Positions 27,832 through 46,471 are shown, counted from the stretch's first letter. The stretch is 64,000 nt of DNA from an uncultured Gammaproteobacteria bacterium (GCA_964395115.1 CAYMZX010000006.1:26041-90040); one strand, 5' to 3'. A program made the numbers and translations. The notes: a model not told the origin generated them from the sequence alone.

Positions 27832-27884
27832 ATCGTGTAAAGACAGAAAAAGGCAGATTAAACTTAGGGCCACCCGAGGCATCG

Positions 27885-27959
27885 GGGTGGCTGACGCGAT
27901 TCGAACGCGCAACCTCAAGGTCCACAACCTCGCGCTCTAGCCATTGAGCTACAGCCACC
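27885..27959 (-). tRNA. tRNA-His (GTG) with an encoded G-1; no CCA
   Basis: Cloverleaf parsed by hand: G-1 pairs with C73, U8, anticodon loop TTGTGGA, T-loop TTCGAAT. Confidence 0.8.
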
Positions 27960-28060
27960 AAATTGAGGATGCTAAATAATATTATAGCAAAACCTAATTA
28001 AAAAAATTAGAAAATCGCTTCCCGGGCGAGGATTTAATTTAACAACCTTTCCAGGGGGGA

Positions 28061-28561
28061 TTATTGAAGCTTCGATTTGGGGTTTACCCAAAGCATCCAT
28101 CCATCAACCCATGTTCGACCATGAACATCCAGAGTGTCGTACCAGCGTTTATTAAATTCATTTTTACCTATCTGCCAAATTCCTTTACGTGACGTAGAAG
28201 GATCAACAAGGGTTAACACTTTAGCCTTTTTGTCGTAATCGCCGACTATCGAATAATGTCCGCAAGGTTCGTCTTCATCTAAGTCATCGGTCCAGTTTAC
28301 AATAACAATATTTCCTTTATTTAAATGATGTTCAATGTCGGCAAAAATGGCATTTATTTTGTAGTTTACGATCTTGAAAAATTTACTTAGGTAGGACAGC
28401 ATGATTTGCTGATTGGTACCCCACCAATCTTTGTAAATCGCCCTGGCTATTTCCTTCTGAGTTTTTTTTATCCCCACGGCAAGGAGAACCATTTGAACCA
28501 CCGCCGGTCCGCACCAGCCGGGTTTTTCCTGAAAACGGTGATATTTATTCCATGAAATCAT
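28061..28561 (-). CDS. Papain-like cysteine peptidase (C39_2/BtrH-like)
   Basis: GWCGPAVVQM catalytic Cys context and a downstream CGHYSIV His. Confidence 0.55.
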   Translation of the reverse strand: MISWNKYHRFQEKPGWCGPAVVQMVLLAVGIKKTQKEIARAIYKDWWGTNQQIMLSYLSKFFKIVNYKINAIFADIEHHLNKGNIVIVNWTDDLDEDEPCGHYSIVGDYDKKAKVLTLVDPSTSRKGIWQIGKNEFNKRWYDTLDVHGRTWVDGWMLWVNPKSKLQ

Positions 28562-28563
28562 AA

Positions 28564-28634
28564 GAGCGGGGTACGGGAGTCGAACCCGTCTTCTCAGCTT
28601 GGAAAGCTGATGTTGAACCGCTCAACTAACCCCG
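28564..28634 (-). tRNA. tRNA-Gly (TCC)
   Basis: Hand-folded cloverleaf: acceptor GCGGGGT/ACCCCGC, anticodon loop TTTCCAA. Confidence 0.8.
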
Positions 28635-28642
28635 CTAATGGT

Positions 28643-28719
28643 TTGGTCGGGGAGGGCGGACTCGAACCGCCGACCTCACGCTCCCAAAGCGCGCACTCTA
28701 ACCAACTGAGCTACTCCCC
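28643..28719 (-). tRNA. tRNA-Pro (TGG), CCA encoded
   Basis: Acceptor CGGGGAG/CTCCCCG, anticodon loop TTTGGGA, T-loop TTCGAGT. Confidence 0.85.
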
Positions 28720-28736
28720 GTTAATTTCCCGCGATT

Positions 28737-28822
28737 GTGCCGGGAGGGAGACTCGAACTCCCACGCTACATTCGTAGCAACAGATTTTAAGTCTGTCCTG
28801 TCTACCGTTCCAGCATCCCGGC
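28737..28822 (-). tRNA. tRNA-Leu (TAA), type II long variable arm
   Basis: Acceptor GCCGGGA/TCCCGGC, anticodon loop CTTAAAA, long variable stem-loop. Confidence 0.8.
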
Positions 28823-28917
28823 CCACCTGCAAGTGATATTTTACTATATAATTGACATTTCTTCAGCTTTTCTCTAGTCTAAAATTAATAGCGTTTAGGA
28901 GGGGAGGTGATATAAAG

Positions 28918-29304
28918 GTGAGAAAGCCGGTGGCTTTATTAATTTTCTGGATGTTAAACTGCATAATTCTTTACGTCGCCTCTGTTATTTTCCCGCAAAG
29001 TTATGAATTGGGTACCTATCGAATTAGCGAGTTATCGTCAGCGATCTTTGCTGGTTTTTCCTGGACGGCCCTTGTGTGGATAGGCAAGCAAATATTAAAG
29101 CGGTTTGGAGTGAAGCTAGCCAAGGAAAAAGAACGAGTAGTCTATTATTATATTCCCGCCAACTTCATTGCTCTGTGGCTAATATCTAGATTCAGCTACT
29201 TTTTCGGATTCGGAATTGTTAGTTTCTGGTGGGCCCTATTGCTTGGAGTTGCGGCCGCTTTTTTGCAGTTTGGTGTCTGGAGGCTAGTAAAAAAAGGTAA
29301 ATAG
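28918..29304 (+). CDS. Hypothetical 4-TM membrane protein (GTG start after a GGAGGTGA RBS; a longer alternative starts at 28852)
   Basis: ORF plus hydrophobic helices. There is no RBS before the upstream ATG. Confidence 0.4.
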   Translation: MRKPVALLIFWMLNCIILYVASVIFPQSYELGTYRISELSSAIFAGFSWTALVWIGKQILKRFGVKLAKEKERVVYYYIPANFIALWLISRFSYFFGFGIVSFWWALLLGVAAAFLQFGVWRLVKKGK

Positions 29305-29309
29305 ATCAA

Positions 29310-29384
29310 TGGCGCCCCTGGAAGGAATCGAACCCTCACCTCATGGTCCGAAGCCATGCGCTCTATCCGTTAAGCCACAGGGGC
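29310..29384 (-). tRNA. tRNA-Arg (TCG), CCA encoded
   Basis: Acceptor GCCCCTG/CAGGGGC, anticodon loop CTTCGGA. Confidence 0.85.
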
Positions 29385-29419
29385 ATTAAATTATTTTCGC
29401 TATAATTATACCTCATAAA

Positions 29420-30493
29420 ATGAGTTTTACCCAAACAGTCAACGCCCTCGAAGAAGAAATACGAAAAACTCCTTACAATAAGGCAACGGAACATCATATT
29501 GGCAAACTCCGAGCGAGATTAGCCCGAATTAAAGAAAAACAACTGGAAAAAGAAAATAGGTCGGTGGGGGGCGGAACTGGATTTGCCGTCAAAAAACAAG
29601 GCGATGCCACTGTTGTTTTAATCGGACCTCCTTCGGTCGGAAAATCAACTCTTTTAAACCGTCTGACTAATGCTAAATCAAAAGTGGCACCATATATTTT
29701 TTCTACCGTCTCGGTTATACCGGGAATGCTTCTTTACCGAAATGCCCATATCCAGATTTTGGATCTTCCTGGTCTGATTGAGGGAGCCCGTCAGGGTAAA
29801 GGATTGGGGAAAGAGGTTATTTCGGTAGCCCGCGTTGCTGACCTACTTGTTATTATGTCTGAAATTGGAAAGGAGGACTCGAGTAAGACTATTTTGAACG
29901 AATTAGAGAAAGCCGGCATTCGTATAAACAAGGAAAGACCTAAGATTAAAATTCAAAAAAAAATTTCCGGAGGAATAGTCATCTGTTCCAATACCAAACA
30001 ATTATTATCCAAGGAGACAATTAGAGATGTTGTTTCGGAATTTGGAATTAAAAATGCTACAGTAACACTGGAGGAAAATATTACATTAGATCAATTACTG
30101 GACTGTCTCTCTCAAAGCACGGTTTATTTGCCTGCGATTTTTGTTGTCAACAAAGCCGATAAGATAAAAAAACGAACCCAACTTACTTATGATGATATTC
30201 TATATATTAGTGCAAAAGACGGCTCTGGTCTCGAACAGTTAAAAGAAAAAATTTGGGAAAAATTAAAACTAGTGGAATTATATTTGATCAAGCCCGGCGA
30301 ACCCATGGGAAGACATACACCAATTATTATGAAAAAAGGCGAAACTCTTTACGATATAACCTTGAAAATAGGGTCTGAATTTGCTAGGAGTAAAAAGCTA
30401 GCTAAAATCTGGGGCGGTTCTGCTAGTTTTCCTGGGCAGTCGGTACCTTTAACAAGGGTAGTTGAACAAGATCTGATGGTTATGTTTATATGA
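29420..30493 (+). CDS. DRG/Rbg1-like OBG-family GTPase with a C-terminal TGS domain
   Basis: DRG-type N-terminus (NKATEHHIGKLRARLARIK), G1 GPPSVGKST, G3 DLPGL, G4 NKAD, and a TGS-like C-terminus. Confidence 0.75.
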   Translation: MSFTQTVNALEEEIRKTPYNKATEHHIGKLRARLARIKEKQLEKENRSVGGGTGFAVKKQGDATVVLIGPPSVGKSTLLNRLTNAKSKVAPYIFSTVSVIPGMLLYRNAHIQILDLPGLIEGARQGKGLGKEVISVARVADLLVIMSEIGKEDSSKTILNELEKAGIRINKERPKIKIQKKISGGIVICSNTKQLLSKETIRDVVSEFGIKNATVTLEENITLDQLLDCLSQSTVYLPAIFVVNKADKIKKRTQLTYDDILYISAKDGSGLEQLKEKIWEKLKLVELYLIKPGEPMGRHTPIIMKKGETLYDITLKIGSEFARSKKLAKIWGGSASFPGQSVPLTRVVEQDLMVMFI

Positions 30494-30504
30494 AGCAGTG
30501 TTTT

Positions 30505-30513
30505 TGATATAAT
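30505..30513 (+). promoter_or_regulatory. Extended -10 element TGaTATAAT about 12 nt upstream of the tRNA array
   Basis: Sequence TGATATAAT at 30505-30513; the first tRNA starts at 30525. Confidence 0.35.
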
Positions 30514-30524
30514 CTACACGTACT

Positions 30525-30608
30525 GCAGACGTGGCGGAATGGTAGACGCGTACGGTTCAGGGCCGTATGAGGTTTACCCTCGTAGAGGTTCAAATCCTCT
30601 CGTCTGCA
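30525..30608 (+). tRNA. tRNA-Leu (CAG), type II
   Basis: Acceptor GCAGACG/CGTCTGC+A, anticodon stem TACGG/CCGTA with loop TTCAGGG, T-loop TTCAAAT. Confidence 0.85.
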
Positions 30609-30609
30609 C

Positions 30610-30685
30610 TCGCAGCTCGTGAGAGATCGGATTTGAAAGTGCCAAGTAAGGAAAACGCTTTGCACACAAATCCTCTCGTCTGCAC
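30610..30685 (+). repeat. 57-nt insert (30610-30666) followed by an exact 19-nt direct repeat (30667-30685) of the tRNA-Leu(CAG) 3' end (30591-30609)
   Basis: Direct string identity caaatcctctcgtctgcac at both positions. Confidence 0.85.
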
Positions 30686-30692
30686 CCGACAA

Positions 30693-30775
30693 GCACTCGT
30701 GGCGGAATTGGCATACGCGATAGCTTGAGGAGCTATGCCCGTAAGGGCGTGGGAGTTCGAGTCTCCCCGAGTGCA
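30693..30775 (+). tRNA. tRNA-Leu (GAG), type II
   Basis: Acceptor GCACTCG/CGAGTGC+A, anticodon stem ATAGC/GCTAT with loop TTGAGGA. Confidence 0.85.
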
Positions 30776-30776
30776 C

Positions 30777-30858
30777 TCACATACGTTCGTGCTCACGTGG
30801 ATGCTCGATAGTGCCAAGTAAGGTAAGAGGCTTTGCACACGAGTCTCCCCGAGTGCAC
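30777..30858 (+). repeat. 63-nt insert (30777-30839), related to the previous insert, followed by an exact 19-nt direct repeat (30840-30858) of the tRNA-Leu(GAG) 3' end (30758-30776)
   Basis: Identity cgagtctccccgagtgcac at both positions. The inserts share ctc.ca..cg.tcgtg at the start and agtgccaagtaagg.aa...gctttgcacac at the end. Confidence 0.85.
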
Positions 30859-30868
30859 AAAAACAGTT

Positions 30869-30942
30869 GGTCGCTTAGCTCAGCCGGTTAGAGCGTGCGG
30901 TTTACATCCGCAAGGTCGCAGGTTCGATTCCTGCAGCGACCA
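30869..30942 (+). tRNA. tRNA-Val (TAC)
   Basis: Acceptor GGTCGCT/AGCGACC, anticodon loop TTTACAT. Confidence 0.85.
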
Positions 30943-30947
30943 CAAAT

Positions 30948-31020
30948 GCTGGGATAGCCAAGGTGGTCACGGCGGGCGCCTGAAGAGCGTCAGATGTGTG
31001 TTCGACTCACACTCCCAGCA
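30948..31020 (+). tRNA. tRNA-Phe (GAA)
   Basis: Acceptor GCTGGGA/TCCCAGC, anticodon loop CTGAAGA, T-loop TTCGACT. Confidence 0.75.
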
Positions 31021-31025
31021 CCTAA

Positions 31026-31097
31026 GCGGGCGTAGTTTACCGGCAAAACGCTTCCTTGCCAAGGAAGAGAAAGTGGGTTCAATTCCCATCGCCCGCT
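31026..31097 (+). tRNA. tRNA-Gly (GCC)
   Basis: Acceptor GCGGGCG/CGCCCGC, anticodon loop TTGCCAA. Confidence 0.85.
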
Positions 31098-31101
31098 CTG
31101 C

Positions 31102-31175
31102 GCCCCCGTAGCTCAATTGGACAGAGCATATCGGTTCTAACGATGCGGTTGAGCGTTCGAGTCGCTCCGGGGGCA
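31102..31175 (+). tRNA. tRNA-Arg (TCT)
   Basis: Acceptor GCCCCCG/CGGGGGC, anticodon loop GTTCTAA, T-loop TTCGAGT. Confidence 0.8.
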
Positions 31176-31179
31176 CTTG

Positions 31180-31226
31180 GGGCCTGTAGCTTAACGGTAG
31201 AGCGATTAACTCTTTAGATTGAAAAT
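31180..31226 (+). pseudogene. Truncated tRNA-like 5' fragment (acceptor + D-arm + anticodon-loop-like CTCTTTA), homologous to the 5' half of the following tRNA-Lys. No 3' half.
   Basis: GGGCCTGTAGCTTAACGGTAGAGCG aligns with GGGCCGCTAGCTCAACGGTAGAGCG. No T-arm or 3' acceptor strand was found downstream. Confidence 0.45.
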
Positions 31227-31317
31227 GGGCCGCTAGCTCAACGGTAGAGCGGCGCCCTCTTAAGGCGACGGTTCCGAGTTCGAATCTCGGGCGGCTCACA
31301 GAAGCCCATTTTCAATC
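31217..31317 (+). repeat. 14-bp perfect inverted repeat GATTGAAAATGGGC / GCCCATTTTCAATC (31217-31230 and 31304-31317) bracketing tRNA-Lys(CTT)
   Basis: Exact reverse complement. The last 4 nt of the left arm are the first 4 nt of the tRNA. Confidence 0.8.
31227..31298 (+). tRNA. tRNA-Lys (CTT). The anticodon stem has one G.A mismatch.
   Basis: Acceptor GGGCCGC/GCGGCTC (one GU pair), D-arm GCTC/GAGC, anticodon loop CTCTTAA, T-arm CCGAG-TTCGAAT-CTCGG. Confidence 0.6.
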
Positions 31318-32925: not shown

Positions 32926-33501
32926 GTGAGCGTTAGGATTTTTTCTTGGGGGTCGCCTAACGGCGACCCTCTTTTTTGTCCGTCTATGAAAAACCTGTTA
33001 CTTGCTTTTATATTTGGATTACTTTTTTTTAGGTTCGCCAGTCCTGTTCTGGCTGAGCCGATAGTCGCCGAATCCTCGGCTATTACCCAAAAAAACACAA
33101 TCCCGAAGGATATACGGGTTAAAATTCTTCAGACTTTTTTAAGAAAACAAAATTCTCCATTAGCCGAATACGCTTATGAATTCATTCTAGTGGCAGATCG
33201 CTACAAACTTGATTGGAGATTAGTACCGGCAATTTCAGGAGTTGAGTCAACGTTCGGGAAAAAAATCCCGGCTAACTCATATAATGCCTATGGTTGGGCA
33301 AATGGCAACTATAGTTTCCAATCGTGGAAGGATTCTATAGAAATCGTTTCCAGGAAACTTAAAAATAACTACATTAACAAAGGCGCCGGTTCGATTGCAA
33401 AAATTGGTAAAATATATGCGCCACCGAGTCACACATGGGTAAAAAAGGTAAAATATTTTATGAGAAAAATAGAACCAATTCCTGTTGAGTTTACCATCTA
33501 A
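32926..33501 (+). CDS. Secreted putative peptidoglycan hydrolase (glucosaminidase-like), paralog of 31411-32049
   Basis: Signal peptide. Shares SPLAEYAY...ADRYKLDWRL..AISGVEST and NAYGWANG with its paralog. Confidence 0.4.
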   Translation: MSVRIFSWGSPNGDPLFCPSMKNLLLAFIFGLLFFRFASPVLAEPIVAESSAITQKNTIPKDIRVKILQTFLRKQNSPLAEYAYEFILVADRYKLDWRLVPAISGVESTFGKKIPANSYNAYGWANGNYSFQSWKDSIEIVSRKLKNNYINKGAGSIAKIGKIYAPPSHTWVKKVKYFMRKIEPIPVEFTI

Positions 33502-33522
33502 GTGGTAAAATAAGAGTTAACT

Positions 33523-33608
33523 GCCGAGGTGGCGAAATGGTAGACGCGCATGGTTTAGGACCATGTCCACATTAAATGTGGGTGGGGGTTCGAATCCCTT
33601 CCTCGGCA
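33523..33608 (+). tRNA. tRNA-Leu (TAG), type II
   Basis: Acceptor GCCGAGG/CCTCGGC+A, anticodon stem CATGG/CCATG with loop TTTAGGA, T-loop TTCGAAT. Confidence 0.85.
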
Positions 33609-33778
33609 CACGAAAGTATCAGATGGGTATGCGCGAGCCGCGAATGGACGCGCGACGAGCGCATCGTGCGGTGGATTCGGGCAAAATTCAATCCGTTTAT
33701 TCTGCAGTAAGAAGTTCGAGCCGACCTTTTTTGCGATGACTGAAAGTTCATCGCAATTATTTTTTCTGCGCACAATTT
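33609..33778 (+). repeat. 170-bp repeat, copy 1, starting immediately after the tRNA-Leu(TAG) discriminator base
   Basis: Near-identical to 38105-38274 (reverse complement). Its first ~100 nt also occur at 36655-36755. Confidence 0.85.
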
Positions 33779-34370
33779 AACTGGCTTCGCCAGCTTTAGC
33801 CCGCTTTGCGGGCACTTCTTCCTCCCCAAGCTTTGATACTATATCACACTTGTATGCATCCTCATCCAAAATCGGATCCCAGAGATGATCCTTATCAGGA
33901 ACAATATGGATATGGAAATGATCCGGCCTTACTGTTCCAGAAACTGGATCAAAGCGATCAGCTCTAAATCTCCAAAAATGAACGATCTTTTTAACATCGG
34001 AGCCATCTGCTCGCTTTAGTTTTGCGTCAAGCATTTTTCGCTTAACATGAGAAAGAACATCAAGAAGCTCGGCATTTTCTTTATAGGTTTGCTCATCAAA
34101 TTCAACAAAGTGCCTTTTTGAAATGACCATAGTATGCCACCACCAATACGGGGCAAGATTAGCTATCCAAACACAATGCTGAAACTCCTTCAGTACAATT
34201 TGATATTTATTCCAATGACAAAAGGTGCAGACGTCCTTTGGGATGCTCGGAATAAAAACCTTATCATACTCCTCACGGCTGAGAAGCCTTGTAGGAGGAG
34301 TTTCTACTTTCTCCAACTTTTTTGGGTTGTCTTTTTGCATAATTAACCATATTTTAGCACGAAGTGCCAA
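33777..34370 (-). CDS. HIT-family nucleotide hydrolase/transferase with an N-terminal CxxC (GalT/Ap4A-phosphorylase-like branch)
   Basis: Histidine triad DHFHIHIVP and an upstream CTFCHW. Paralog of 35973-36443. The start may be the internal MQKDNP. Confidence 0.65.
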   Translation of the reverse strand: MALRAKIWLIMQKDNPKKLEKVETPPTRLLSREEYDKVFIPSIPKDVCTFCHWNKYQIVLKEFQHCVWIANLAPYWWWHTMVISKRHFVEFDEQTYKENAELLDVLSHVKRKMLDAKLKRADGSDVKKIVHFWRFRADRFDPVSGTVRPDHFHIHIVPDKDHLWDPILDEDAYKCDIVSKLGEEEVPAKRAKAGEAS

Positions 34371-34377
34371 GCTTCGC

Positions 34378-34954
34378 TTACAACTCGACCTCTATTACTT
34401 GCAAATTATCCCATTTTAATTTTCTTAGCACATCAAAAATTAGTTGAGGGTACTCTGTCCAGGGAACATCCGCAACTTTCAAAAGAAAATGCCTAAAAAA
34501 GGTGCCATGCCCAACAATAGCGATCTTTTGATATTTCTTTGTTTTTTTCTCCTTGAGCAAAAATTGATAAAGCCTTTCAACTCTATTAGCAACAGAAGCA
34601 AAAGACTCTCCCCCCTTTAGGCTCCCAATATATATTCATCTTGTCTTTTTTGTGTTTGACTTCCCAAAAATCCGTTGCAAATTTCCTTGGCTTGCCGATG
34701 ATTTCTTTTGGAGTCCCATATTCTTTTATGAAATTAAGAATCTTGTAATTTTCTTTTCCGAAAATTAAATCTGCAGTCTCTTTAGCCCTCTGCATGGGAG
34801 AACAAAAAACAAAGTCTACTTCTCCAATCTTATTCTTGACTTGTTCCACTTTATCTAAAGTTTCAGAGTCTATAACAATCGGAGTTACATGTCTTTGAGT
34901 TAGCAGATCTTCCGCATCTCTTGTTCTTGCGTGCCTGATGAGATAGATTTTCAT
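34378..34954 (-). pseudogene. Histidine phosphatase (phosphoglycerate-mutase family) gene split by a frameshift in a C7/G7 homopolymer (34610-34616)
   Basis: The N-terminal ORF (LIRHARTRD, catalytic RHG) and the C-terminal ORF (IVGHGTFFRHFL) are in different frames. A 1-nt shift in the G7 run gives the continuous ...EPKGGESFASVANRVERLYQFL... Confidence 0.7.
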
Positions 34955-35352
34955 TAGCCAGTTTGTCCTAATCTTGGCCTCCTACCGGTACTGCCTAGAT
35001 AACTAAAATCTCTGTAAAACCTTCGCAAACTGCCTCCTTCGTCTCTTATCCCCGGTCTTACATTTCTTAGTAACTCTGCTACCTCCGGTTTTCGGGCATA
35101 CTCGACAACTTCCTCCCAATTTACTGGGGTACTGATTAGTGGGTACTGAGGATTTACCCCATCTACAAAAATTACAGAAATTTGTTCTCCCAAGCGTCTT
35201 GCCAAAGCACATCTATGTAATCCATCCACTATTGCCGGTACACCATCGCTTATTTCGATAACTGGTGGTGCAACAGTATATTTTAAGTTATAGTAAATGT
35301 GGTCGAGTTTAAAAATATCAACACCATCCTCGCTTAATATATCTTCACGCAT
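34954..35352 (-). CDS. ParB/sulfiredoxin-fold (ParB-like nuclease domain) protein
   Basis: IVDGLHRCALARRLG resembles the ParB N-terminal DGxHR...LG motif. 132 aa; its stop is adjacent to the start of the next gene. Confidence 0.45.
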   Translation of the reverse strand: MREDILSEDGVDIFKLDHIYYNLKYTVAPPVIEISDGVPAIVDGLHRCALARRLGEQISVIFVDGVNPQYPLISTPVNWEEVVEYARKPEVAELLRNVRPGIRDEGGSLRRFYRDFSYLGSTGRRPRLGQTG

Positions 35353-35560
35353 CGAGGCTACAAATTGAAGGTTACTTGTTAGAACATATTTCGCGATTGG
35401 ATATAAATCGTTTGGGTCAAATGTTCTTATTGATATCTCTGCGCTTCTGTAAAGCGAACCCTGCCATCTAAGGTTCTAGTGTCACGAACAGCCTCTAATA
35501 GTTGTAACTTTGGCTCGGTTTCTAGTTCGAATATCGCTTCATTCATTCTTTCTATATTGG

Positions 35561-35923
35561 TTATAAGAAGTATTTAGAGATATCAGTCCAGTTAGTAAAT
35601 CTCAGAGCCCTATCATCAATGTAAACCAAAGCATTGGGCTTTACGGCTGTTATATCGTGATAATGCTTATTTAGTTCGAATCCATTTTCCGATAGCCATT
35701 TAGTCATTTTATTTTTCTCAAGGTTTGTATCCTCATTCACCTCTGGGTTTAGTCGGATTGTAAAGATTACTACCTTATAACCTTTCTCAACCATTCTTTC
35801 CATTTGATCCCTAGCTCCTTTCATCGGAGGATCATAAATGGAACCGTCCTGCCAACCTTTGCTGTATCGATGGATCACACCATCAAAATCAATACAAATA
35901 GCTTTTTGCTTCATGATAGTCAA
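35561..35923 (-). CDS. Small HAD-superfamily phosphatase (5' nucleotidase / PNK 3'-phosphatase-like)
   Basis: Motif I ICIDFDGVI (DxDG), motif III K, and a C-terminal YIDDR acidic motif. Confidence 0.45.
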   Translation of the reverse strand: MTIMKQKAICIDFDGVIHRYSKGWQDGSIYDPPMKGARDQMERMVEKGYKVVIFTIRLNPEVNEDTNLEKNKMTKWLSENGFELNKHYHDITAVKPNALVYIDDRALRFTNWTDISKYFL

Positions 35924-35972
35924 AGTATATCAAAAACTTGTAAAAATTGACAACAAACGAACGCGGTTGGTT

Positions 35973-36443
35973 TTATTGGAGCAAACCCAATATCTTCTTT
36001 TTAAGCTCATTAGGAGACATGCGAACTGTATGGATGTTGGCAATAAAACCCGCAAAGCCGTTTATCGGTTGGTGGTGAACTCTGGGGATTATTTGCCAGT
36101 GAAGATGTTTCACAGATGAACCAGATTCTGGGCCAACATTGAAGCCGATGTTAAAGGATTTTGTGTCAAAGATTTTTAAAAGAATTGTTTTTGTCTGTTC
36201 AGTCAGTCCCTGAAGTTCTCCCCACTCGTTTTTGTTAAGATCTGATGTATCTTCAGCGTGGCGTTTTAATACCAACATCAAGTTCCCATCGAAAATGGGG
36301 TATTGATTGACAAAAATCATCCAGCTTTTCCCTTCCAGAGGTTTGATATTTTGTTTCTCGATTATTTGTCTGTCACAAAAGGGGCAATTTTTATTGTGGT
36401 AGTTGTGATTGTATTTTAATCTGTATGGATTATAAACTTTCAT
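35973..36443 (-). CDS. HIT-family protein with an N-terminal CxxC (HxHxQ variant)
   Basis: CPFCDR and KHLHWQIIPR. Paralogous to 33777-34370. Confidence 0.7.
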   Translation of the reverse strand: MKVYNPYRLKYNHNYHNKNCPFCDRQIIEKQNIKPLEGKSWMIFVNQYPIFDGNLMLVLKRHAEDTSDLNKNEWGELQGLTEQTKTILLKIFDTKSFNIGFNVGPESGSSVKHLHWQIIPRVHHQPINGFAGFIANIHTVRMSPNELKKKILGLLQ

Positions 36444-36537
36444 AGCGTCAATTCAATAATGCTTAAGAATATCATAATTTGCTATACTGAAAACATATTT
36501 AAAATTTTTGCCTTTTTATTTCTGCCTAGAGGTGGTG

Positions 36538-36755
36538 TTCGAGCCGACTTTTTTTGCGATGCCATCAGGACGAGCTAGAAATGGTGCGGCTGTCTGTAGC
36601 GGGCGGCAGCCGCTCCGCTTTGAAATACGTTCGAATTTGAACATATACAGAGCACACGAAAGTATCAGATGGGTATGCGCGAGCCGCGACAGGCCGCGCG
36701 GCGAGCGCATCGTGCGGTGGATTCGGGCAAAATTCAATCCGTTTATCTGAATAAG
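36538..36755 (+). repeat. Permuted copy 2 of the 170-bp repeat: distal segment (36538-36563), ~90 nt unique with palindromes, then proximal 100-nt segment (36655-36755)
   Basis: String matches to copy 1: gttcgagccgac(c)tttttgcgatg and cacgaaagtatcag...caatccgtttat. Confidence 0.75.
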
Positions 36756-36786
36756 AAAAACTAAAAACGCAAAAATTTTAAACACC

Positions 36787-38313
36787 ATGAAATATATAGC
36801 TTACTGTAGAAAATCAACAGATGAGAAGGAAAAACAAATTCTTTCCATTGATCAGCAAATTTATGAATTAAAGCAGTTTGCGCAAAAAGAGAATTTAGAG
36901 ATAGTTGAGTTTTTGACAGAAGCGCAAACTGCTAAGATTCCAGGCAGAAAAGTATTTTCAAACCTGGTGAAGCTGTTAGAAAATGGATATGCTGACGGAA
37001 TTGTTGCGTGGCATCCAGATAGACTAGCAAGAAATTCAATAGATGGTGGTAAAATTATTTATTTGCTAGATGAAGGAAAATTACAGTCCCTGAAATTTCC
37101 TACTTTCTGGTTTGAAAATACTCCACAGGGGAAATTTATGCTTAATATTGCCTTTGGCCAAGCGAAATACTATGTTGATAATTTAAGCGAAAATGTCAAA
37201 AGAGGTTTGCATTTTAAAGCCAGACAAGGTGAGTGGCCTGGCATGGCTCCATTTGGTTATTTCAACGACAAAAATACCCGTTCCATCAAAATTATGCCTG
37301 AACAAGCTAAACTAGTAGAAACAGTTTTTAATAAATTTGCTGACAACGAATTTTCTTCCTTGAGAGAAATCAGAGACTATTTGTTCAGGCACAGTGTAAA
37401 AAGAAAGGACGACAGGCCACTTCACTACAATCAAATTCGTGATATGTTGACGCGTAATCTGTATTACGGAGTTTTTACTTATGCAGGAGAAACTTACGAG
37501 GGTAAACATGAGCCAATAATCTCCAAGAAATTATTTGACCAAGTTCAAGAAGTCATAGCTAGTAAATACAACTCTAAGCCCCAAAAACACGAATTTGATT
37601 TTACTGGTTTTATTAAATGCAAAAATTGCGATTCTTTTATCACTGCAGAACGCCACAAAAAATATTACAAAAAGACTGACAGACACGCAGAATACACTTA
37701 TTACCGTTGTGTCAAAAAGAAAGGGTTTTGTGATCAGCCATATGTCAGAGAGAAAGAGGTTGAATCGCAATTAAGGGAACTTGTGGACAGCGTTGCGCTG
37801 TCTGAGGCGTGGGCTAGGAAAATGTTTGAACTACTTGAAAAAGACGAAATCAGAGAGAAAGGAAAAATCAAGATTGGGCTTGTCCGTCTCACAACTTCCC
37901 TTGAAGTGGTTGAGAAGAAGCTAGACAAACTTCTTGAGTCTTATTTAGAAGAAATTGTTGATACCGAAAGTTATCAAGTCAAAAAGGATCAACTGCTTCA
38001 ACAAAAAATAATTCTCAAAGAGAAAATTGAGGAGATTAAGACCAAAGGAAGTGTTTGGCTCGAACCTATGAGGGAATTTATAAATATGGCCGCTGATGCG
38101 GCCAAAATTGTGCGCAGAAAAAATAATTGCGATGAACTTTCAGTCATCGCAAAAAAGGTCGGCTCGAACTTCTTACTGCAGAATAAACGGATTGAATTTT
38201 GCCCGAATCCACCGCACGATGCGCTCGCCGCGCGGCCTGTCGCGGCTCGCGCATACCCATCTGATACTTTCGTGTGCCGCCAGAGAGATTCGAACTCTCG
38301 ATTTTCTGGTTGA
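36787..38313 (+). CDS. Large serine recombinase (resolvase/invertase catalytic domain + recombinase domain + zinc ribbon); the C-terminal ~70 aa are encoded by repeat copy 3
   Basis: N-terminal YCRKSTDEKEKQ..SIDQQ (catalytic Ser context), DRLARN, and a Cys-rich CKNCDS...YYRCVKKKGFC zinc ribbon. The ORF has no stop until 38313, inside tRNA-Glu. Confidence 0.85.
   Translation: MKYIAYCRKSTDEKEKQILSIDQQIYELKQFAQKENLEIVEFLTEAQTAKIPGRKVFSNLVKLLENGYADGIVAWHPDRLARNSIDGGKIIYLLDEGKLQSLKFPTFWFENTPQGKFMLNIAFGQAKYYVDNLSENVKRGLHFKARQGEWPGMAPFGYFNDKNTRSIKIMPEQAKLVETVFNKFADNEFSSLREIRDYLFRHSVKRKDDRPLHYNQIRDMLTRNLYYGVFTYAGETYEGKHEPIISKKLFDQVQEVIASKYNSKPQKHEFDFTGFIKCKNCDSFITAERHKKYYKKTDRHAEYTYYRCVKKKGFCDQPYVREKEVESQLRELVDSVALSEAWARKMFELLEKDEIREKGKIKIGLVRLTTSLEVVEKKLDKLLESYLEEIVDTESYQVKKDQLLQQKIILKEKIEEIKTKGSVWLEPMREFINMAADAAKIVRRKNNCDELSVIAKKVGSNFLLQNKRIEFCPNPPHDALAARPVAARAYPSDTFVCRQRDSNSRFSG
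38105..38274 (-). repeat. 170-bp repeat, copy 3 (inverted relative to copies 1 and 2), starting immediately after the tRNA-Glu discriminator base
   Basis: Reverse complement of copy 1 with a few substitutions. Its GC hairpin is identical to that of copy 2. Confidence 0.85.
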
Positions 38314-38348
38314 GAACCAGACGTCCTGGGCCACTAGACGATGGCGGC
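38275..38348 (-). tRNA. tRNA-Glu (CTC)
   Basis: Acceptor GCCGCCA/TGGCGGC+A, D-arm GTCTAGTGGCCCAGGAC, anticodon loop TTCTCAA, T-loop TTCGAAT. Confidence 0.85.
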
Positions 38349-38385
38349 TAAAAACACAGTTTCCGGGTATATTCTACCTTAATAC

Positions 38386-40878
38386 TTAAACCGTGGCAAT
38401 TAGAGGCTGGGGGGAAACTGCGCGATCAGCTTTGATCTTTGGAGGCCAAGTCGTCAAAGCAGTCTTCAGAACCGTCTCAACATTATCGACAAAGATAAAG
38501 TTTATACCCTCTTGAACCTTCTTTGGAATATCTTCCATATCTTTTTTATTATCCTTCGGCATCACGATAGTCTTAAGACCTGCCCTGTGGCCAGCTACAA
38601 CTTTCTCTTTAACCCCACCTATTTCAAGCACCCTACCTCGCAGGGTAATTTCTCCGGTCATACCTACATCCTTTTTAACTGCGACACCTGTCAGGGCTGA
38701 TACAAGTGCGGTTGTTATGGCGATACCGGCCGAAGGCCCATCTTTGGGAACAGCGCCTTCTGGTACATGAATGTGAACATCAATTTTTTGAGAAAAATTC
38801 TCTTTTAATCCCAAAGCTCTCCAGTGGGATTTTGCCCATGTAAAGGCCGCCATGGCTGATTCTTTCATCACATCACCCAGTTGTCCTGTTAAGGTTAGTT
38901 TACCTTTACCCGGCATAAGAGATACCTCAATAAAAAGAATCTCTCCCCCAGCCGCCGTCACTGCCAAACCGGTAGCCATCCCAACCTCGTCTTTTTTCTC
39001 AGCCAATTGAGAAGTATATCTATAAGGGCCAAGGAATTTCCTAACATCTACAGAACCTAAATTTTTGGGATATTTTTTCTTTTCGGCAACTTGACGGGCA
39101 ATTTTTCTACAAATAGTTGCCAAATTCCTTTCTAAGTCCCTAACCCCAGCCTCTTTGGTGTAACGCCTGATTATCTCTAGGAAAATAGATTCTGATACTT
39201 TAATTTTTTTATCCTCGAGACTGTGAAGTCTTAATTGTTTTGGCCAAAGATATTTTTTGGCAATATGATACTTTTCATCTTCAATATAGCCTGCAAATTT
39301 AATTATTTCCATACGGTCAAGAAGAGGAGCAGGTATGGTATCAGTCACATTTCCTGTACAAATAAACATAACTTCACTTAAATCAAAAGGAACCTCTAGA
39401 TAGTGATCTGAAAACTCTCTATTTTGTTCTGGATCCAGGGCTTCCAATAAAGCCGAAGACGGATCTCCCCTAAAATCAACCCCGATTTTATCAATCTCAT
39501 CAAGCATAAATACGGGGTTTTTGCTCCCTGCATTTTTGATTCCCTGGATAATTCTGCCCGGAAGAGCTCCCACATAAGTTCTTCGGTGTCCTCTTATTTC
39601 TGCCTCATCTCGAATCCCACCAAGAGACACTCTGACAAACTTTCTTCCCAAGGCCCTGGCAATTGATTTTCCAATTGAAGTCTTACCCACACCGGGCGGA
39701 CCTATAAAGCACAAAATTGTAGGATGATGCTCTCCGTTTTCACCAACTTTTCCTTTCTTGTGATTTCTTTGAGTCTCTTTTTTCAACTTCATCACTGCCA
39801 AAAACTCCAAAATTCTTTCTTTGACTTTGTCCAAACCATAATGATCCTCATCTAAAGTCTTTTCGGCCCGTTTAATCGAGGCGTTATCGGATGTAACCTT
39901 GCTCCAAGGCATATCACAAAGCCAATCTAAATAATTTCGGATATAACCACCTTCAGGGTTGTTGATCGAGAGTTGCTGGAGTCTTTTGAGTTCCTTTTGT
40001 GCTTTCTCACGAATCTCTTTTGGCATTTTTGCTTTTTTAATTTTCTGTTTATATTCATTTATTTCATCTGTCATAATACCCGATTCATCCTCACCCAACT
40101 CTTCCTCTATCGTGCGTTTCTTTTCTCGAAGCATAGCCTTGCGCATCTGATCTTCAAAGCGTTTGTGGGTTTTAATCGATATAGTTCTTTCTATATCCAA
40201 AATATTAACCTCCCGTCCCAAAAGCTCAAGCACTCTCTCAGTTCTTCTCAAGACAGAAATGGTCTCAAGTAGTTTTTGTTTTTCGGAAGTCTTTACATCA
40301 AGAAGTGATGCTATCGAATCCACTATCTCAATGGGATCTGCCTCCCCTGAAAGGATGCGCATCAAAGTCGTTATCTCCACAGCTTTTCCCAAATTTACCG
40401 ATTTTTTGAAAAGCTCAATAAGTTGTTTAGAAAGGGCTATAAGCTTATCACTTTTGGTTTCTTCTTCGGCAATTTCTTCAACCTTTGCCATAAGATAAGG
40501 CTTATCTGTTACCCACTCTACAACCCTAATTCTTATTTGTCCCCTAACCATAGCATTAATCTCCTCCCCCGAAGACATCATCTGAGTAATTGTTGCCAAA
40601 GTCCCAATTTTATAAAGATCATCAAATACTGGGTTAGACAGCCGCGGATCCTTTTGGGTAAGAATTCCAATCACTCTGTCTTTCTCAAAAGCTGTGTTAA
40701 CTGCCGCCACCGACTTTGGCCTTCCAAAGGAAAGAATTGAGTCTGTATGTGGAAAAACTACAGAACCCCGAATCGCAACAATTGGAATTGTCCGAAATAT
40801 TTTATTATTTTCTTGTATTTTTGTATCCTGCATGGCCTTGATTCTTAGCAGTCTAGCAATAAGAGTGCTATATGTCAA
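38386..40878 (-). CDS. lon: ATP-dependent protease Lon (La)
   Basis: LON N-domain, Walker A GPPGVGKTS, and a proteolytic domain with KDGPSAG catalytic Ser. Confidence 0.9.
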   Translation of the reverse strand: MTYSTLIARLLRIKAMQDTKIQENNKIFRTIPIVAIRGSVVFPHTDSILSFGRPKSVAAVNTAFEKDRVIGILTQKDPRLSNPVFDDLYKIGTLATITQMMSSGEEINAMVRGQIRIRVVEWVTDKPYLMAKVEEIAEEETKSDKLIALSKQLIELFKKSVNLGKAVEITTLMRILSGEADPIEIVDSIASLLDVKTSEKQKLLETISVLRRTERVLELLGREVNILDIERTISIKTHKRFEDQMRKAMLREKKRTIEEELGEDESGIMTDEINEYKQKIKKAKMPKEIREKAQKELKRLQQLSINNPEGGYIRNYLDWLCDMPWSKVTSDNASIKRAEKTLDEDHYGLDKVKERILEFLAVMKLKKETQRNHKKGKVGENGEHHPTILCFIGPPGVGKTSIGKSIARALGRKFVRVSLGGIRDEAEIRGHRRTYVGALPGRIIQGIKNAGSKNPVFMLDEIDKIGVDFRGDPSSALLEALDPEQNREFSDHYLEVPFDLSEVMFICTGNVTDTIPAPLLDRMEIIKFAGYIEDEKYHIAKKYLWPKQLRLHSLEDKKIKVSESIFLEIIRRYTKEAGVRDLERNLATICRKIARQVAEKKKYPKNLGSVDVRKFLGPYRYTSQLAEKKDEVGMATGLAVTAAGGEILFIEVSLMPGKGKLTLTGQLGDVMKESAMAAFTWAKSHWRALGLKENFSQKIDVHIHVPEGAVPKDGPSAGIAITTALVSALTGVAVKKDVGMTGEITLRGRVLEIGGVKEKVVAGHRAGLKTIVMPKDNKKDMEDIPKKVQEGINFIFVDNVETVLKTALTTWPPKIKADRAVSPQPLIATV

Positions 40879-44782: not shown

Positions 44783-45202
44783 TTAAAATAGAGTGAACGC
44801 CTTTTTTATGACTTCTCGCGTTTCTTTGCTTAGATTGTAACTATCCAAATCCCTCTTTGTGACCCAGGCAAAATTTTGGTGTTCGGGACTTAATCTAACT
44901 TTGGGTCTCCCAAGACGTTTGCATAAAAAGGATATCTGGGTTGCGTCCCTAATTTCATCATCTTTTTCAACTCTAAATTCAAAAACATCAACGGGAACAA
45001 GTGGTTTAACATCAATCCCCACTTCTTCTTTTACCTCGCGGATGAGTGCTTTTTTGGAAGTTTCAAAATGCTCGCGCTTTCCACTTGGAATTTCCCAAAG
45101 ATTTGGGAAAACATCTTCATCAGCGCTTCTTTGAATTATAAGTATTTTTCCCCGATACTCAATTATTCCGGCAACAACTATTTTTTGGACAACCTTTTTC
45201 AT
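44783..45202 (-). CDS. NUDIX hydrolase
   Basis: Nudix box GKREHFETSKKALIREVKEEVGI. The internal Met (MKKVVQKIVVAG) was chosen as the start. Confidence 0.7.
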   Translation of the reverse strand: MKKVVQKIVVAGIIEYRGKILIIQRSADEDVFPNLWEIPSGKREHFETSKKALIREVKEEVGIDVKPLVPVDVFEFRVEKDDEIRDATQISFLCKRLGRPKVRLSPEHQNFAWVTKRDLDSYNLSKETREVIKKAFTLF

Positions 45203-45240
45203 GTTCAGATTATACCCAATAATTTGATACAATACCAAAA

Positions 45241-45879
45241 ATGAAACTCTATCTAGTTCGCCACGGTGTAACCGTAGAATACGAGAACCAAAAATCTCAA
45301 AAGCCCGAAAGTCCCCTATCAAAAGAAGGTATAAAACAGGCAAAACTTTTGGCTCAAAGGATCAAAAGAAATGGTCTTAAATTTGACGTGGTATTTGCAA
45401 GCCCGTTTGAAAGAGCCAAAAAAACTGCAGAAATAATCTGCAAAGAACTAAATTTTCCTTTTGAAGAAACGGAACTACTTCAAGAAAGACTAAAGCCTGC
45501 CTTTATTGTGGGTCTGGGACCTGGAGACAGCCTTTATGACAAATATTTTGAAGAATTAAAAAAACACTGGAATGACATTGATTGGAAGTATAACAACGAG
45601 GGAGAATCAATAGCCGATGTCCTCGCCCGTGCGCAAAATTTTGAGAAGCATCTTTTCGAAAGACATTTGAATCAGGATATTTTGGTCGTCTCTCATGGAA
45701 TTTTTGGCAGATGTTTTATAGCCAATTGTATCTTGGGCGGAAATTCTAACAAGGATGTCTTTATGAACTTATTTCATGCCATAAAAATTGAAAACACCGG
45801 CTTTAGCTTTTTAGAATACGATGAAGATGATAATAGATGGAAAATCCATTTTCTCAATGACCACAGCCACCTGATGTAA
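45241..45879 (+). CDS. Histidine phosphatase (phosphoglycerate-mutase superfamily)
   Basis: LVRHGVT (RHG), FASPFERAKKTA, and a C-terminal VVSHG. Confidence 0.75.
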   Translation: MKLYLVRHGVTVEYENQKSQKPESPLSKEGIKQAKLLAQRIKRNGLKFDVVFASPFERAKKTAEIICKELNFPFEETELLQERLKPAFIVGLGPGDSLYDKYFEELKKHWNDIDWKYNNEGESIADVLARAQNFEKHLFERHLNQDILVVSHGIFGRCFIANCILGGNSNKDVFMNLFHAIKIENTGFSFLEYDEDDNRWKIHFLNDHSHLM

Positions 45880-45897
45880 AATAAAAAATTAAATAAG

Positions 45898-46419
45898 ATG
45901 AAATCTTCTGAGGTAATCAGTATTTACAAAATGCTAAAAGACAATGAAATTGATGTTTGGCTGGACGGCGGCTGGGGAGTCGATGCCCTTTTGGGTCATC
46001 AAACCCGTGAGCACAAAGATATTGATATCGTAATTCAACAAAAAGATGTATTAAAACTAAGGAAAATACTAGAAGAGGAAGGACTCAAGGAAGTAAAAAG
46101 AGTCGATACAAGTGATTGGAATTTCGTTTTGGGGAAAGCTAATCTTCTACTTGATGTCCACGTAGTAACTTTTGACGAGAAAGGAAACGGTATTTATGGG
46201 CCAAGAAAAAGGGGCATTTTCTATCCTGCATATTCTTTTAAAAGAACAGGAAAGATTGAAGGTTTTCCGGTCAAATGTTTGACTGCAGATTACCAAGTGG
46301 AATCTCACAGAGGATATGAAATTGACGAAAATGACATCAATGATGTTTTTGCTTTGTGTAAGAAATTTGGTATCGCGCTTCCAAAAGAGTACATCAAATA
46401 CAAAACCGGAAAAAAGTAG
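45898..46419 (+). CDS. Nucleotidyltransferase of the ANT(2'')/aminoglycoside-2''-adenylyltransferase-like family
   Basis: WLDGGWGVDALLGHQTREHKDIDI pol-beta-type NTase motif (G-G...D.D), ~173 aa. Confidence 0.5.
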   Translation: MKSSEVISIYKMLKDNEIDVWLDGGWGVDALLGHQTREHKDIDIVIQQKDVLKLRKILEEEGLKEVKRVDTSDWNFVLGKANLLLDVHVVTFDEKGNGIYGPRKRGIFYPAYSFKRTGKIEGFPVKCLTADYQVESHRGYEIDENDINDVFALCKKFGIALPKEYIKYKTGKK

Positions 46420-46471
46420 CTATAAGATTCACACTGTAAATTTATTACTTTAACTGATATAAGCTTTTAGA

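Follow-up and report, generated by a model that had tools for sequence, protein, structure and literature searches.

The large serine recombinases (LSRs, or integrases) of phages and ICEs, among them A118/LI, SPbeta SprA, phiC31 and Bxb1, are the closest described systems to the locus analysed here. Their attachment sites share a short common core, and the recognition motif lies 4–5 bp farther from the centre in attP than in attB; the published rule is that the zinc-ribbon motif of a half-site sits about 5 bp closer to the centre in attB than in attP (PMC3783163). A 2020 paper presented serine integrases that use tRNA genes, 14 of 297 cases, as not previously reported (PMC7192596). The ‘suicidal’ archaeal tyrosine integrases of the SSV1 type have their attP in the integrase reading frame and target tRNA genes, and therefore change the integrase gene upon integration (PMC7253208); they have about 44 bp in common with the tRNA, and their gene is split into two inactive parts. 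The tycheposons of Prochlorococcus, which we compared by description, are small cargo-carrying integrative elements at the tRNA genes of streamlined genomes. Most rely on a tyrosine recombinase and often also have partial tRNA repeats and genes for replication or packaging; a large serine recombinase is found in a minority, 27 of 937 (bioRxiv 10.1101/2020.12.28.424599). Neither an inverted duplicate attP nor an integrase-embedded attP is among their described features. In architecture alone, the yeast 2-micron plasmid and Hin-type segments are also similar, with a recombinase gene between long inverted repeats, each containing a recombination site; their enzymes are a tyrosine recombinase (Flp) and a small serine recombinase (Hin), respectively.

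We analysed a 64-kb stretch of DNA (the window), in which tRNA-Leu(tag) (33523–33609, plus strand; ARAGORN, Rfam tRNA 58.1 bits) and tRNA-Glu(ctc) (38274–38348, minus strand; ARAGORN, Rfam 66.3 bits) are both intact. ARAGORN, Rfam and the repeat arms bore out the first-pass annotation in that these genes converge and that each is directly followed by the same sequence of about 170 nt. Together with the tRNA 3' ends, which make up the initial ~22 nt of each arm, this sequence forms an outer inverted repeat of 191 nt (33588–33778 and 38105–38295; 95% complementary). The likely explanation is that a small integrative element, by now partly decayed, has inserted here; it would belong to an LSR-driven family whose members insert at the 3' ends of tRNA genes.

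The LSR gene (36787–38313, plus strand) encodes 508 aa and was identified from Pfam matches, alignment invariants and translation. The three Pfam families anticipated for this ORF were all matched: Resolvase (PF00239, E 4.6e-22, residues 4–150), Recombinase (PF07508, E 5e-16) and Zn_ribbon_recom (PF13408, E 2.9e-8). This is the same set as in the phage and ICE enzymes, a coiled coil being expected in addition, and the catalytic, Recombinase and zinc beta-ribbon domains place the protein among the serine integrases. Every residue invariant in its family is kept in the window copy, among them R8 and S10, which do not vary in 32 family members. In sequence the protein is very far removed from the known LSRs; the closest solved structure is that of the SPbeta integrase (E 6e-15, with an alignment spanning residues 4–418). 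Two other kinds of serine recombinase could be ruled out. Hin/Gin invertases are small (~190 aa), with a C-terminal HTH, short inverted sites and an enhancer; the window protein has 508 aa and LSR domains, and scored 17.9 bits with the Mpi invertase model against a cutoff of 272. IS607-family transposases have an N-terminal MerR-like HTH followed by the catalytic domain, in about 190–220 aa; the NCBIfam IS607 model gave 32 bits against a cutoff of 110 and covered the catalytic core only.

The 170-bp repeats had been taken for att repeats that bound the island. They are instead copies of the 3' end of the integrase gene, corresponding to the P arm of attP, and they are not intergenic. Copy 3 (38105–38277, plus strand; repeat and translation comparison) is the genuine 3' end of the gene, comprising the last ~70 codons of the ORF, and it ends with the crossover core, TGC, at the 3' end of tRNA-Glu. 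By translation, the last 11 codons of the LSR are antisense tRNA-Glu, within which the ORF stops. Copy 1 (33606–33778, minus strand; 95% identity to 38105–38295) is an orphan copy of the terminal ~170 nt of the integrase gene, integrase-sense on the minus strand; it is fused to the 3' end of tRNA-Leu and begins precisely at the stop codon of the cargo gene HIT2. Three repeat copies are present as first described, but copy 2 (36652–36757, minus strand) measures 95–108 nt rather than 170, being 100% identical to copy 3 over 95 nt and 97% over 108 nt. Its core (36652–36746) is direct relative to copy 1 and 100% complementary to 38183–38277, and copy 2 forms the left arm of an inverted repeat around the integrase gene, just upstream of the 508-aa ORF. 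No additional copies were found within the 64-kb window, where the chance expectation is also none.

Copy 2 and the adjacent ~90 nt would together make up an internal, inverted attP site (attP'), with copy 2 as its P arm. The T arm of this intact site (36537–36651, minus strand) is integrase-sense on the minus strand and encodes a ‘native’ tail, SVYVQIRTYF..., which matches the T-type tails of P0003 and P0007. Among LSR homologues, the C-terminus is of one of two kinds: an antisense-tRNA tail, or a conserved native tail identical to that beside copy 2. Compared with the tRNA, the T arm of attP' has its TCGAAC motif displaced outward by 5 bp, and the arm ends in a 25-nt piece, B' (36537–36561), copied from the integrase 3' region. 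A repeat search found a 31-nt A/T-rich inverted repeat bracketing attP' (36498–36528 and 36752–36782), and the same bracket, over 22 nt, surrounds attP' in loci L002 and L004. Its right arm lies directly upstream of the integrase ATG, and its left arm is probably one of two divergent promoter regions. A consensus scan placed terminator-like, tRNA-sense hairpins in both copies 1 and 3: a hairpin H followed by TTATTTTTTC downstream of tRNA-Leu (33731–33756, plus strand), to which we assign a terminator function by inference, and hairpin H with a T-run in the sense of tRNA-Glu, inside the integrase coding sequence (38127–38152, minus strand).

From this arrangement we propose that attP lies inside the last integrase codons, with the integrase 3' end as its P arm and the native tail as its T arm, and that attB would be the 3' end of a tRNA gene with its downstream flank. 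Judging from motif position alone, the integrase probably uses its zinc-ribbon domain to recognise the T-loop sequence, which is universal (antisense ATTCGAAC), and the T arm of attP would mimic this motif (TCGAAC) at a position 4–5 bp farther from the crossover. Strand exchange would take place at a 2–6-bp core at the tRNA 3' terminus (GCA, or antisense TGC, in the window) and leave the tRNA intact. After integration the integrase ORF would end in antisense tRNA, and the hairpin in its 3' end would serve as the tRNA terminator. In the window, copy 3 would thus represent attR at tRNA-Glu, of which the tRNA is the attB-derived half, and copy 1 an orphan attR-type junction at tRNA-Leu(tag) in place of the normal left end. 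This scheme resembles that of the SSV1-type integrases in placing attP inside the ORF, but the window enzyme is a serine recombinase that retains all conserved domains after integration, which rules out an SSV-type element; only a non-conserved C-terminal tail of about 10–30 codons is swapped and the enzyme stays whole.

To place the window copy in context we surveyed 84 distinct related loci, nearly all from CPR MAGs. A convergent tRNA was fused to the LSR 3' end in 61 of the 84, covering 30 isoacceptors, and in another 18 the LSR 3' end coincided with a contig end. About 45 loci (2.4–9.3 kb) had the layout X|T–cargo–(inverted intact attP)–int–P|tRNA, in which the left end begins exactly at the crossover with the T arm. 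Relative to its position in the tRNA, TCGAAC in the T arm was displaced outward by 4 bp in 19 distinct loci and by 5 bp in 22 (41 of 41 in all), matching the published shift of the zinc-ribbon motif between attP and attB (PMC3783163), as would be expected of serine integrase half-sites. The common cores were 2–11 nt long, and exactly GC in L023 and L040; dyad symmetry of attP was weak overall (8.8 versus 7.95 matches of 21). An inverted repeat around the integrase gene was present in 67 of 84 loci (median 99 nt, 99% identity). The inner pair formed by copies 2 and 3 is a hallmark of the whole family, since copy 2 is part of a second attP that is intact and inverted. The arms of this site are about 100% identical to the outer ones, which leaves ~100-nt inverted repeats on both sides of the integrase gene and likewise of the cargo. 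Repeat arms were 100% identical within genomes and 59–93% identical between genomes. The family is common in CPR/Patescibacteria and almost confined to their genomes. Our literature search found no paper describing this integrase or element family. The LSR domain set and the att logic are those of the phage and ICE integrases; the loci compared differ from these in the targeting of many different tRNA 3' ends, in an attP embedded in the integrase ORF and in the inverted second attP. A further difference from the phage and ICE systems is that no directionality factor or phage genes were found, and no candidate directionality factor was conserved among the minimal elements.

Comparison with near relatives indicates that the element moves. 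In L009 the 4.66-kb element recurs at tRNA-Leu(taa) with all five cargo genes, and in L002 these cargo genes adjoin the integrase at tRNA-Arg(tct). Between the window and either locus, island proteins are 71–95% identical and backbone proteins 48–53%; the different tRNA sites and this contrast argue for mobility and are what horizontal transfer would be expected to leave. In L047 an element is precisely inserted between tRNA-Leu(gag) and tRNA-Val with a core of GTGC, and the window has the empty site there, a filled and empty pair consistent with an integrative element of tRNA genes. These observations sustain the initial suggestion of an LSR-driven integrative mobile element using tRNA-adjacent sites. 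A locus fixed in all relatives, with repeats spread genome-wide, had been named as the pattern that would speak against it, and this is not what the relatives display. An empty tRNA-Leu/tRNA-Glu site matching the window's own copy was not found among relatives, nor were a circular form or recombination junction reads of the window copy.

Both the outer and the inner repeats are inverted and their arms evolve in concert, as they would if the recombinase flipped the 4.3-kb segment or its own gene through the 170-nt or 95-nt repeats to control expression, in a locus that is not mobile. Such a switch could also account for the presence of the tRNA to either side of the integrase gene in L008, the upstream tRNA in L084 and the many contigs that break at the repeat, all of which may be assembly artefacts. 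We consider it unlikely, however: the outer inverted pair occurs in the window only, its sister elements L002 and L009 ending with a T arm; site differences between near relatives, empty sites and identity patterns point to horizontal transfer; and in place of a small Hin/Gin-type enzyme the locus encodes a large serine integrase, with a motif shift of the attP/attB type. Flipping of the inner cassette may nevertheless be a secondary property of the mobile element. The window element also differs from the 2-micron plasmid in having no replication function and a different enzyme family.

Slightly less probable still is a fixed, domesticated chromosomal locus, in which a recombinase and repeats belonging to CPR tRNA clusters, such as tRNA-trailer or terminator repeats, are vertically inherited with no current mobility. 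It would suit the terminator-like and GC hairpins that the P arm places downstream of tRNAs, the persistence of orphan P arms without an integrase, and the decaying cargo and missing canonical left end of the window. Against it, LSRs that are 71–85% identical occupy at least six different tRNAs, island identity is far above backbone identity, the cargo varies, and only three repeat copies exist in the 64 kb, each tied to integrase sequence. The window copy itself may nonetheless be immobile. A remnant of a prophage or conjugative element is highly improbable: this class of integrase is typically met in temperate phages and ICEs (PMC3783163), but the island and about 45 delimited relatives (2.4–9.3 kb) contain no phage or conjugation genes, and the P-arm pattern occurred in none of 2.9 million viral contigs, where only 6 loci with LSR relatives were found versus more than 582 in genomes.

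The left end of the window copy departs from the integrative element described above. Canonical members begin there with a different sequence, the T arm, and about 45 relatives have both recombinant ends. The window has attR (P|tRNA-Glu), but in place of attL an orphan integrase 3' fragment adjoins a second tRNA, tRNA-Leu(tag), as an attR-type junction without an integrase (P|tRNA-Leu); it has no X|T and therefore could not be excised by the standard attL x attR route. Orphan P arms also lie 3' of tRNA-Leu(gag) in L009 and of tRNA-Leu(tag) in L094, and tRNA-Leu(tag) in L002 and L004 has no adjoining P arm. Copy 1 was most likely left behind by a second insertion that has since lost its integrase by deletion; our attempts to derive it from a canonical element in one site-specific step did not succeed. 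More tentatively, the universal T-loop and acceptor end might act as a generic landing pad, with the obligatory inverted attP keeping integrated copies recombinogenic; one lineage of the integrase, of at least 71% identity, uses at least seven different tRNAs ending in GCA. If so, integrase and cargo segments could flip-flop; further tRNA sites could be captured, giving cassettes flanked by two tRNAs, orphan P arms and scrambled CPR tRNA clusters; and essentially every genome would hold a natural attB for the enzyme.

The cargo lies on the minus strand. HIT2 (33777–34370; Pfam HIT, tblastn), a HIT-family gene, is intact and 94–96% identical in amino acids to its L009 and L002 copies. It is followed by a histidine phosphatase (His_Phos_1) pseudogene with one frameshift (34378–34954), supported by Pfam and by tblastn, in which the 191-aa L009 and L002 orthologues align in two segments that lie in different frames. 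A ParB-CE domain gene (34954–35561) is frameshifted near codon 35, as judged from two tblastn segments in different frames against 203-aa orthologues; its domain match is weak in the window, and the L009 copy matches PF24392 with E 7.7e-12. An intact gene for a small HAD-type phosphatase-like protein of 117–120 aa with a DFDGV motif (35561–35923; NCBIfam and orthologues) is 77% identical to its orthologues; its NCBIfam match to the BT0820-family HAD (E 9e-6) is below cutoff, and the 120-aa window ORF was recognised as HAD-like solely via its orthologue. The last gene, also intact, encodes a HIT-family protein like Ap4A phosphorylase/ATP adenylyltransferase (35973–36443; Pfam HIT and DcpS_C, NCBIfam). 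The gene families of the five-gene operon with a frameshifted His-phosphatase thus agree with the first-pass annotation, and the frameshift in the ParB-CE gene brings the pseudogenes to two of five. In PADLOC, one cargo protein gave a generic HIT match, to ThsC (E 4.8e-7), and the other four gave none, so the cargo does not qualify as a known anti-phage defence system; with two of its five genes decayed in the window, the suggestion that it forms a previously undescribed accessory system is likewise unproven. We read the HIT/HAD/ParB-CE/His-phosphatase/HIT module as passenger cargo, and at other loci the same integrase family travels with unrelated genes, including an MFS transporter and HTH regulators.

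Both convergent tRNA genes that flank the island are complete according to ARAGORN and Rfam, tRNA-Leu(tag) at 33523-33609 on the plus strand and tRNA-Glu(ctc) at 38274-38348 on the minus strand. As the first-pass annotation had proposed, the two are joined to one common repeat. A repeat finder returned the outer inverted pair as 33588-33778 and 38105-38295 (191 nt, 95% complementary), to which both tRNAs contribute the first ~22 nt, their generic T-arm and acceptor ends. Pattern searches found exactly three copies in the 64 kb, with 0 expected by chance, and we number them from left to right. Copy 2 (36652-36746) has the same orientation as copy 1 and pairs with 38183-38277 at 100% complementarity, reaching 108 nt at 97%. 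An Rfam scan of 33000-39000 at E<=1 gave the two tRNAs and nothing else, so the repeat is not explained by a known RNA family. Pfam identified the 508-aa ORF at 36787-38313 as a large serine recombinase (LSR) with Resolvase, Recombinase and Zn_ribbon_recom domains, in agreement with its earlier assignment, and matched minus-strand island genes to HIT, His_Phos_1, ParB-CE (weakly) and HIT; a Lon protease gene lies on the far side of tRNA-Glu. The recombinase gene does sit between inverted copies 2 and 3, as annotated, but copy 2 is 95-108 nt long and copy 3 is not intergenic: it constitutes the last ~70 codons of the ORF, which stops 11 codons into antisense tRNA-Glu (...FVC from the repeat, then RQRDSNSRFSG and the stop codon). 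The minus strand beside copy 2 encodes the native tail of the homologues described next (SVYVQIRTYFKAERLPP...).

We searched 5.8 billion proteins for homologues of this integrase and examined the closest 120, named by their source as Woesebacteria, Gottesmanbacteria, Daviesbacteria and Parcubacteria. They have a common C-terminal region (...KKVGSNYFL.NKRLEF...LC), past which one type of tail is a translated antisense T-arm (RGWDSNPH, GREDLNLH, GFEPxx) and the other a 'native' S(V/L)Y.(Q/K)(I/T)RTYF. Denoting the integrase 3' end as P and the native tail arm as T, we found the T-type tail in about one fifth of family ORFs. The two tail types, together with the native tail beside copy 2, indicate that P-T is the unrecombined attP and P-tRNA is attR. 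Judged from its sequence, the window is predicted to hold an attR at tRNA-Glu (copy 3), an intact inverted attP directly upstream of the integrase gene (attP', copy 2 plus 36537-36651), and a second attR-type junction, lacking an integrase, at tRNA-Leu (copy 1).

This architecture recurs across the family. A scan of one genome per species yielded >582 integrase relatives, nearly all from metagenome-assembled genomes (MAGs) of Patescibacteria (CPR), and 84 distinct loci were analysed. A convergent tRNA abuts or overlaps the integrase 3' end in 61 of the 84, in constant orientation and with 30 anticodons represented, and at 18 further loci the contig stops within 250 nt of that end. An inverted repeat surrounds the integrase gene in 67/84 (median 99 nt, 99% identity). 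At ~45 loci the upstream T-arm copy starts exactly at the crossover position, which delimits elements of 2.4-9.3 kb. In locus L002, whose integrase is 85% identical to that of the window, the order is X-T (the canonical left end), cargo, inverted T-P, integrase and P-tRNA-Arg(tct), with HIT2, His_Phos, ParB-CE, a 117-aa product and HIT among the cargo; loci L004-L007 (integrase 80% identical) have X-T, an MFS transporter, inverted T-P, integrase and P-tRNA-Leu(cag). Cargo elsewhere is varied and includes HTH regulators, membrane proteins, radical SAM enzymes and glycosyltransferases. Minimal elements contained no conserved small gene that could be a candidate directionality factor, and contig L003, checked for circularity, had no terminal overlap. 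One contig (L099; GCA_040960765.1, JBFOMR010000799.1, 6000-16500) bears three family integrases within 18 kb. Many CPR-like loci (L015, L016, L022 and others) are labelled 'uncultured Gammaproteobacteria' or 'Pseudomonadales' in binchicken co-assemblies, and these labels look unreliable.

Next, we aligned P-tRNA and P-T junctions at the end of the common P arm. In 41/41 distinct loci, the T arm places the antisense T-loop motif TCGAAC at a greater distance from the crossover than the tRNA does, the outward shift being 4 bp (n=19) or 5 bp (n=22). In serine integrases, the motif for the zinc-ribbon domain is 5 bp nearer the centre in attB than in attP (Rutherford et al., PMC3783163); measured from the GC of the TGC core, the motif occupies positions ~12-19 in the tRNA half and ~17-24 in the T arm, which fits this model. 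We infer that the zinc ribbon may read the T-loop. The sequence common to X-T, P-T and P-tRNA is 2-11 nt (GTGC in the window's lineage, exactly GC in loci L023 and L040) and spans the last acceptor bases, the discriminator and, where encoded, CCA. Because the common core is limited to this terminus, the tRNA stays intact. Some lineages show clear attP dyad symmetry; family-wide it is only weakly above shuffled controls, and we therefore dropped it as evidence. A near-perfect GC-rich hairpin ~25-35 nt from the crossover (33646-33681, 36692-36727 and 38202-38237) is found in nearly all family P arms (43 loci) with differing stem sequences, despite lying in a coding region (ALAA..AA), and the T arm bears an analogous hairpin.

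The proposal that the island is an integrative mobile element at tRNA-adjacent sites gained support from an empty site, from the range of tRNAs occupied and from a contrast in protein identity. A 2.8-kb element in locus L047 lies precisely between tRNA-Leu(gag) and tRNA-Val, while the same spacer in the window is uninterrupted, with the same ...TGAG-TGC-tRNA junction. LSRs sharing at least 71% identity with the window enzyme reside at Glu(ctc), Arg(tct), Leu(cag), Leu(gag), Leu(taa) and Met(cat), with orphan P arms at Leu(tag) and Leu(gag), and all of these tRNAs end in GCA. The complete Woesebacteria genome L009 carries a canonical 4.66-kb element with the same set of five cargo genes at tRNA-Leu(taa). 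Island proteins of the window share 71-95% identity with those of L002 or L009, versus 48-53% for flanking housekeeping proteins. Among 2.9 million viral contigs, family members are almost lacking, and a P-arm pattern search gave 0 matches. The first-pass annotation had looked to an empty tRNA-Leu(TAG)/tRNA-Glu(CTC) site; the 10 metagenome-contig loci with the P-arm pattern included orphan P arms and no such site.

The window also has a dense cluster of 12 tRNA genes (27884-31299), whose order varies among the window, L002, L004, L009 and L047, with breakpoints that adjoin family elements. Homologous spacers of ~65 nt (..GTGCCAAGTAAGG..GCTTTGCACAC) follow tRNA-Leu(cag) and tRNA-Leu(gag) at 30610-30692 and 30777-30868, and after each comes a duplicated 18-nt stretch of the preceding tRNA's 3' end; these may be footprints of past integration or excision. 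A 38-nt 5' half of a tRNA-Lys-like pseudo-tRNA (31180-31217) lies between tRNA-Arg(tct) and the real tRNA-Lys(ctt).

The left end of the island departs from the family pattern. A canonical left end reads X-T, then TTTTTTCTGCGCACAATT, then the HIT2 stop; in the window, tRNA-Leu(tag) instead runs into a full 170-nt P arm in reverse complement, which ends at the same TTTTTTCTGCGCACAATT. Contrary to the initial reading, then, the 170-bp repeats do not bound the element: they are the integrase 3' end (copy 3) and an orphan arm, the canonical left end being X-T. Copies 2 and 3 match each other fully, whereas copy 1 shares 95% identity with copy 3, which fits an origin of copy 1 that was separate or is no longer homogenised. 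It is possible that two elements once occupied the convergent tRNAs and that a deletion later occurred between short direct 'A' repeats (20-28 nt, TTTTTTCTGCGCACAATT), which sit after the HIT2 stop in L002 and L009; gene conversion is also possible. One-step origins by attP' x attB deletion or inversion, by flips of the integrase or cargo segment, by attL x attR recombination between two elements, or by unequal sister exchange were rejected, as none yields two long P arms. L009 and L094 likewise have integrase-free orphan P arms of ~95-125 nt, placed after tRNA-Leu(gag) in the former (16834-16990) and after tRNA-Leu(tag) in the latter (9009-9190); L094 is a closer relative of the window (backbone 59-65% identical), and its arm precedes a DDE (rve) transposase fragment. 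A second P-arm hairpin, distinct from the GC-rich one and bearing a T-run, lies downstream of both window tRNAs in tRNA-sense orientation; if it is selected as a tRNA terminator, this could account for the persistence of orphan arms.

The inverted attP' might allow flip-flop inversion, preserve an intact attP once the element has integrated, or serve as an operator between two 31-nt repeats (36498-36528 and 36752-36782, from the repeat finder) that resemble divergent promoters. P arms are 100% identical over 90 nt within genomes and 59-93% identical between genomes, and T arms follow the same pattern, which argues that the arms swap sequence frequently. Four loci hint indirectly at flipping or at additional recombination: in L008, tRNA-Leu(cag) flanks the integrase gene left and right, and the arms differ by two SNPs; L084 has a co-oriented tRNA upstream of the gene; L066 (9796-11582) has an integrase cassette between tRNA-Glu(ttc) and tRNA-Glu(ctc), with a P arm fused to either tRNA and both attPs thus consumed; and L099 has a tandem array, int1-P-T-cargo-(inverted T-P)-int2-P-tRNA-Leu(cag). 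Many family contigs also break at the repeat.

tRNA genes are classic targets of tyrosine integrases. According to a genomic-island survey, serine integrases were not known to target them, with candidate cases in 14/297 (PMC7192596). A large phylum-wide serine-integrase family devoted to tRNA 3' ends would fill this gap, and T-loop mimicry at attP spacing would explain the targeting concretely at the level of sequence. The window enzyme is an LSR, yet distant from solved ones (SPbeta integrase, E 6e-15). An attP within the integrase ORF is common to this family and archaeal SSV-type tyrosine integrases (PMC7253208), and tycheposons offer a conceptual parallel; the literature searched held no description of the CPR family. 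Family-wide tRNA 3'-end targeting, T-loop mimicry in attP, an integrase-embedded attP and an obligatory inverted second attP stand out. To our knowledge, CPR mobile elements are poorly known; the family would be a main vehicle of CPR gene exchange and might account for the rearranged tRNA clusters of CPR MAGs and for their frequent contig breaks. Serine integrases are leading genome-engineering tools, and, provided that the specificity rules hold, an enzyme reading a motif found in every tRNA gene could be of use.

The cargo had been put forward as a candidate undescribed accessory system, and it stays a putative one: PADLOC and NCBIfam matched the cargo proteins to no defined system or defence system, family matches were generic (Ap4A phosphorylase/ATP adenylyltransferase-like HIT, BT0820-type HAD, CobC-like phosphatase), and two of the five genes are frameshifted. 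Comparison with orthologues confirmed the annotated frameshift in His_Phos_1 and added one in ParB-CE, with HIT2, the HAD-like gene and HIT intact. Literature searches gave no relevant description of ParB-CE. The cargo may plausibly act in nucleotide or RNA-end metabolism. A second His_Phos_1 paralogue, ~30% identical to the island's, lies at ~44900-46700 amid NUDIX and nucleotidyltransferase genes. Farther along the window, a 114-nt direct repeat (58928-59041 and 59374-59487) has copies that are 71% identical and 446 nt apart.
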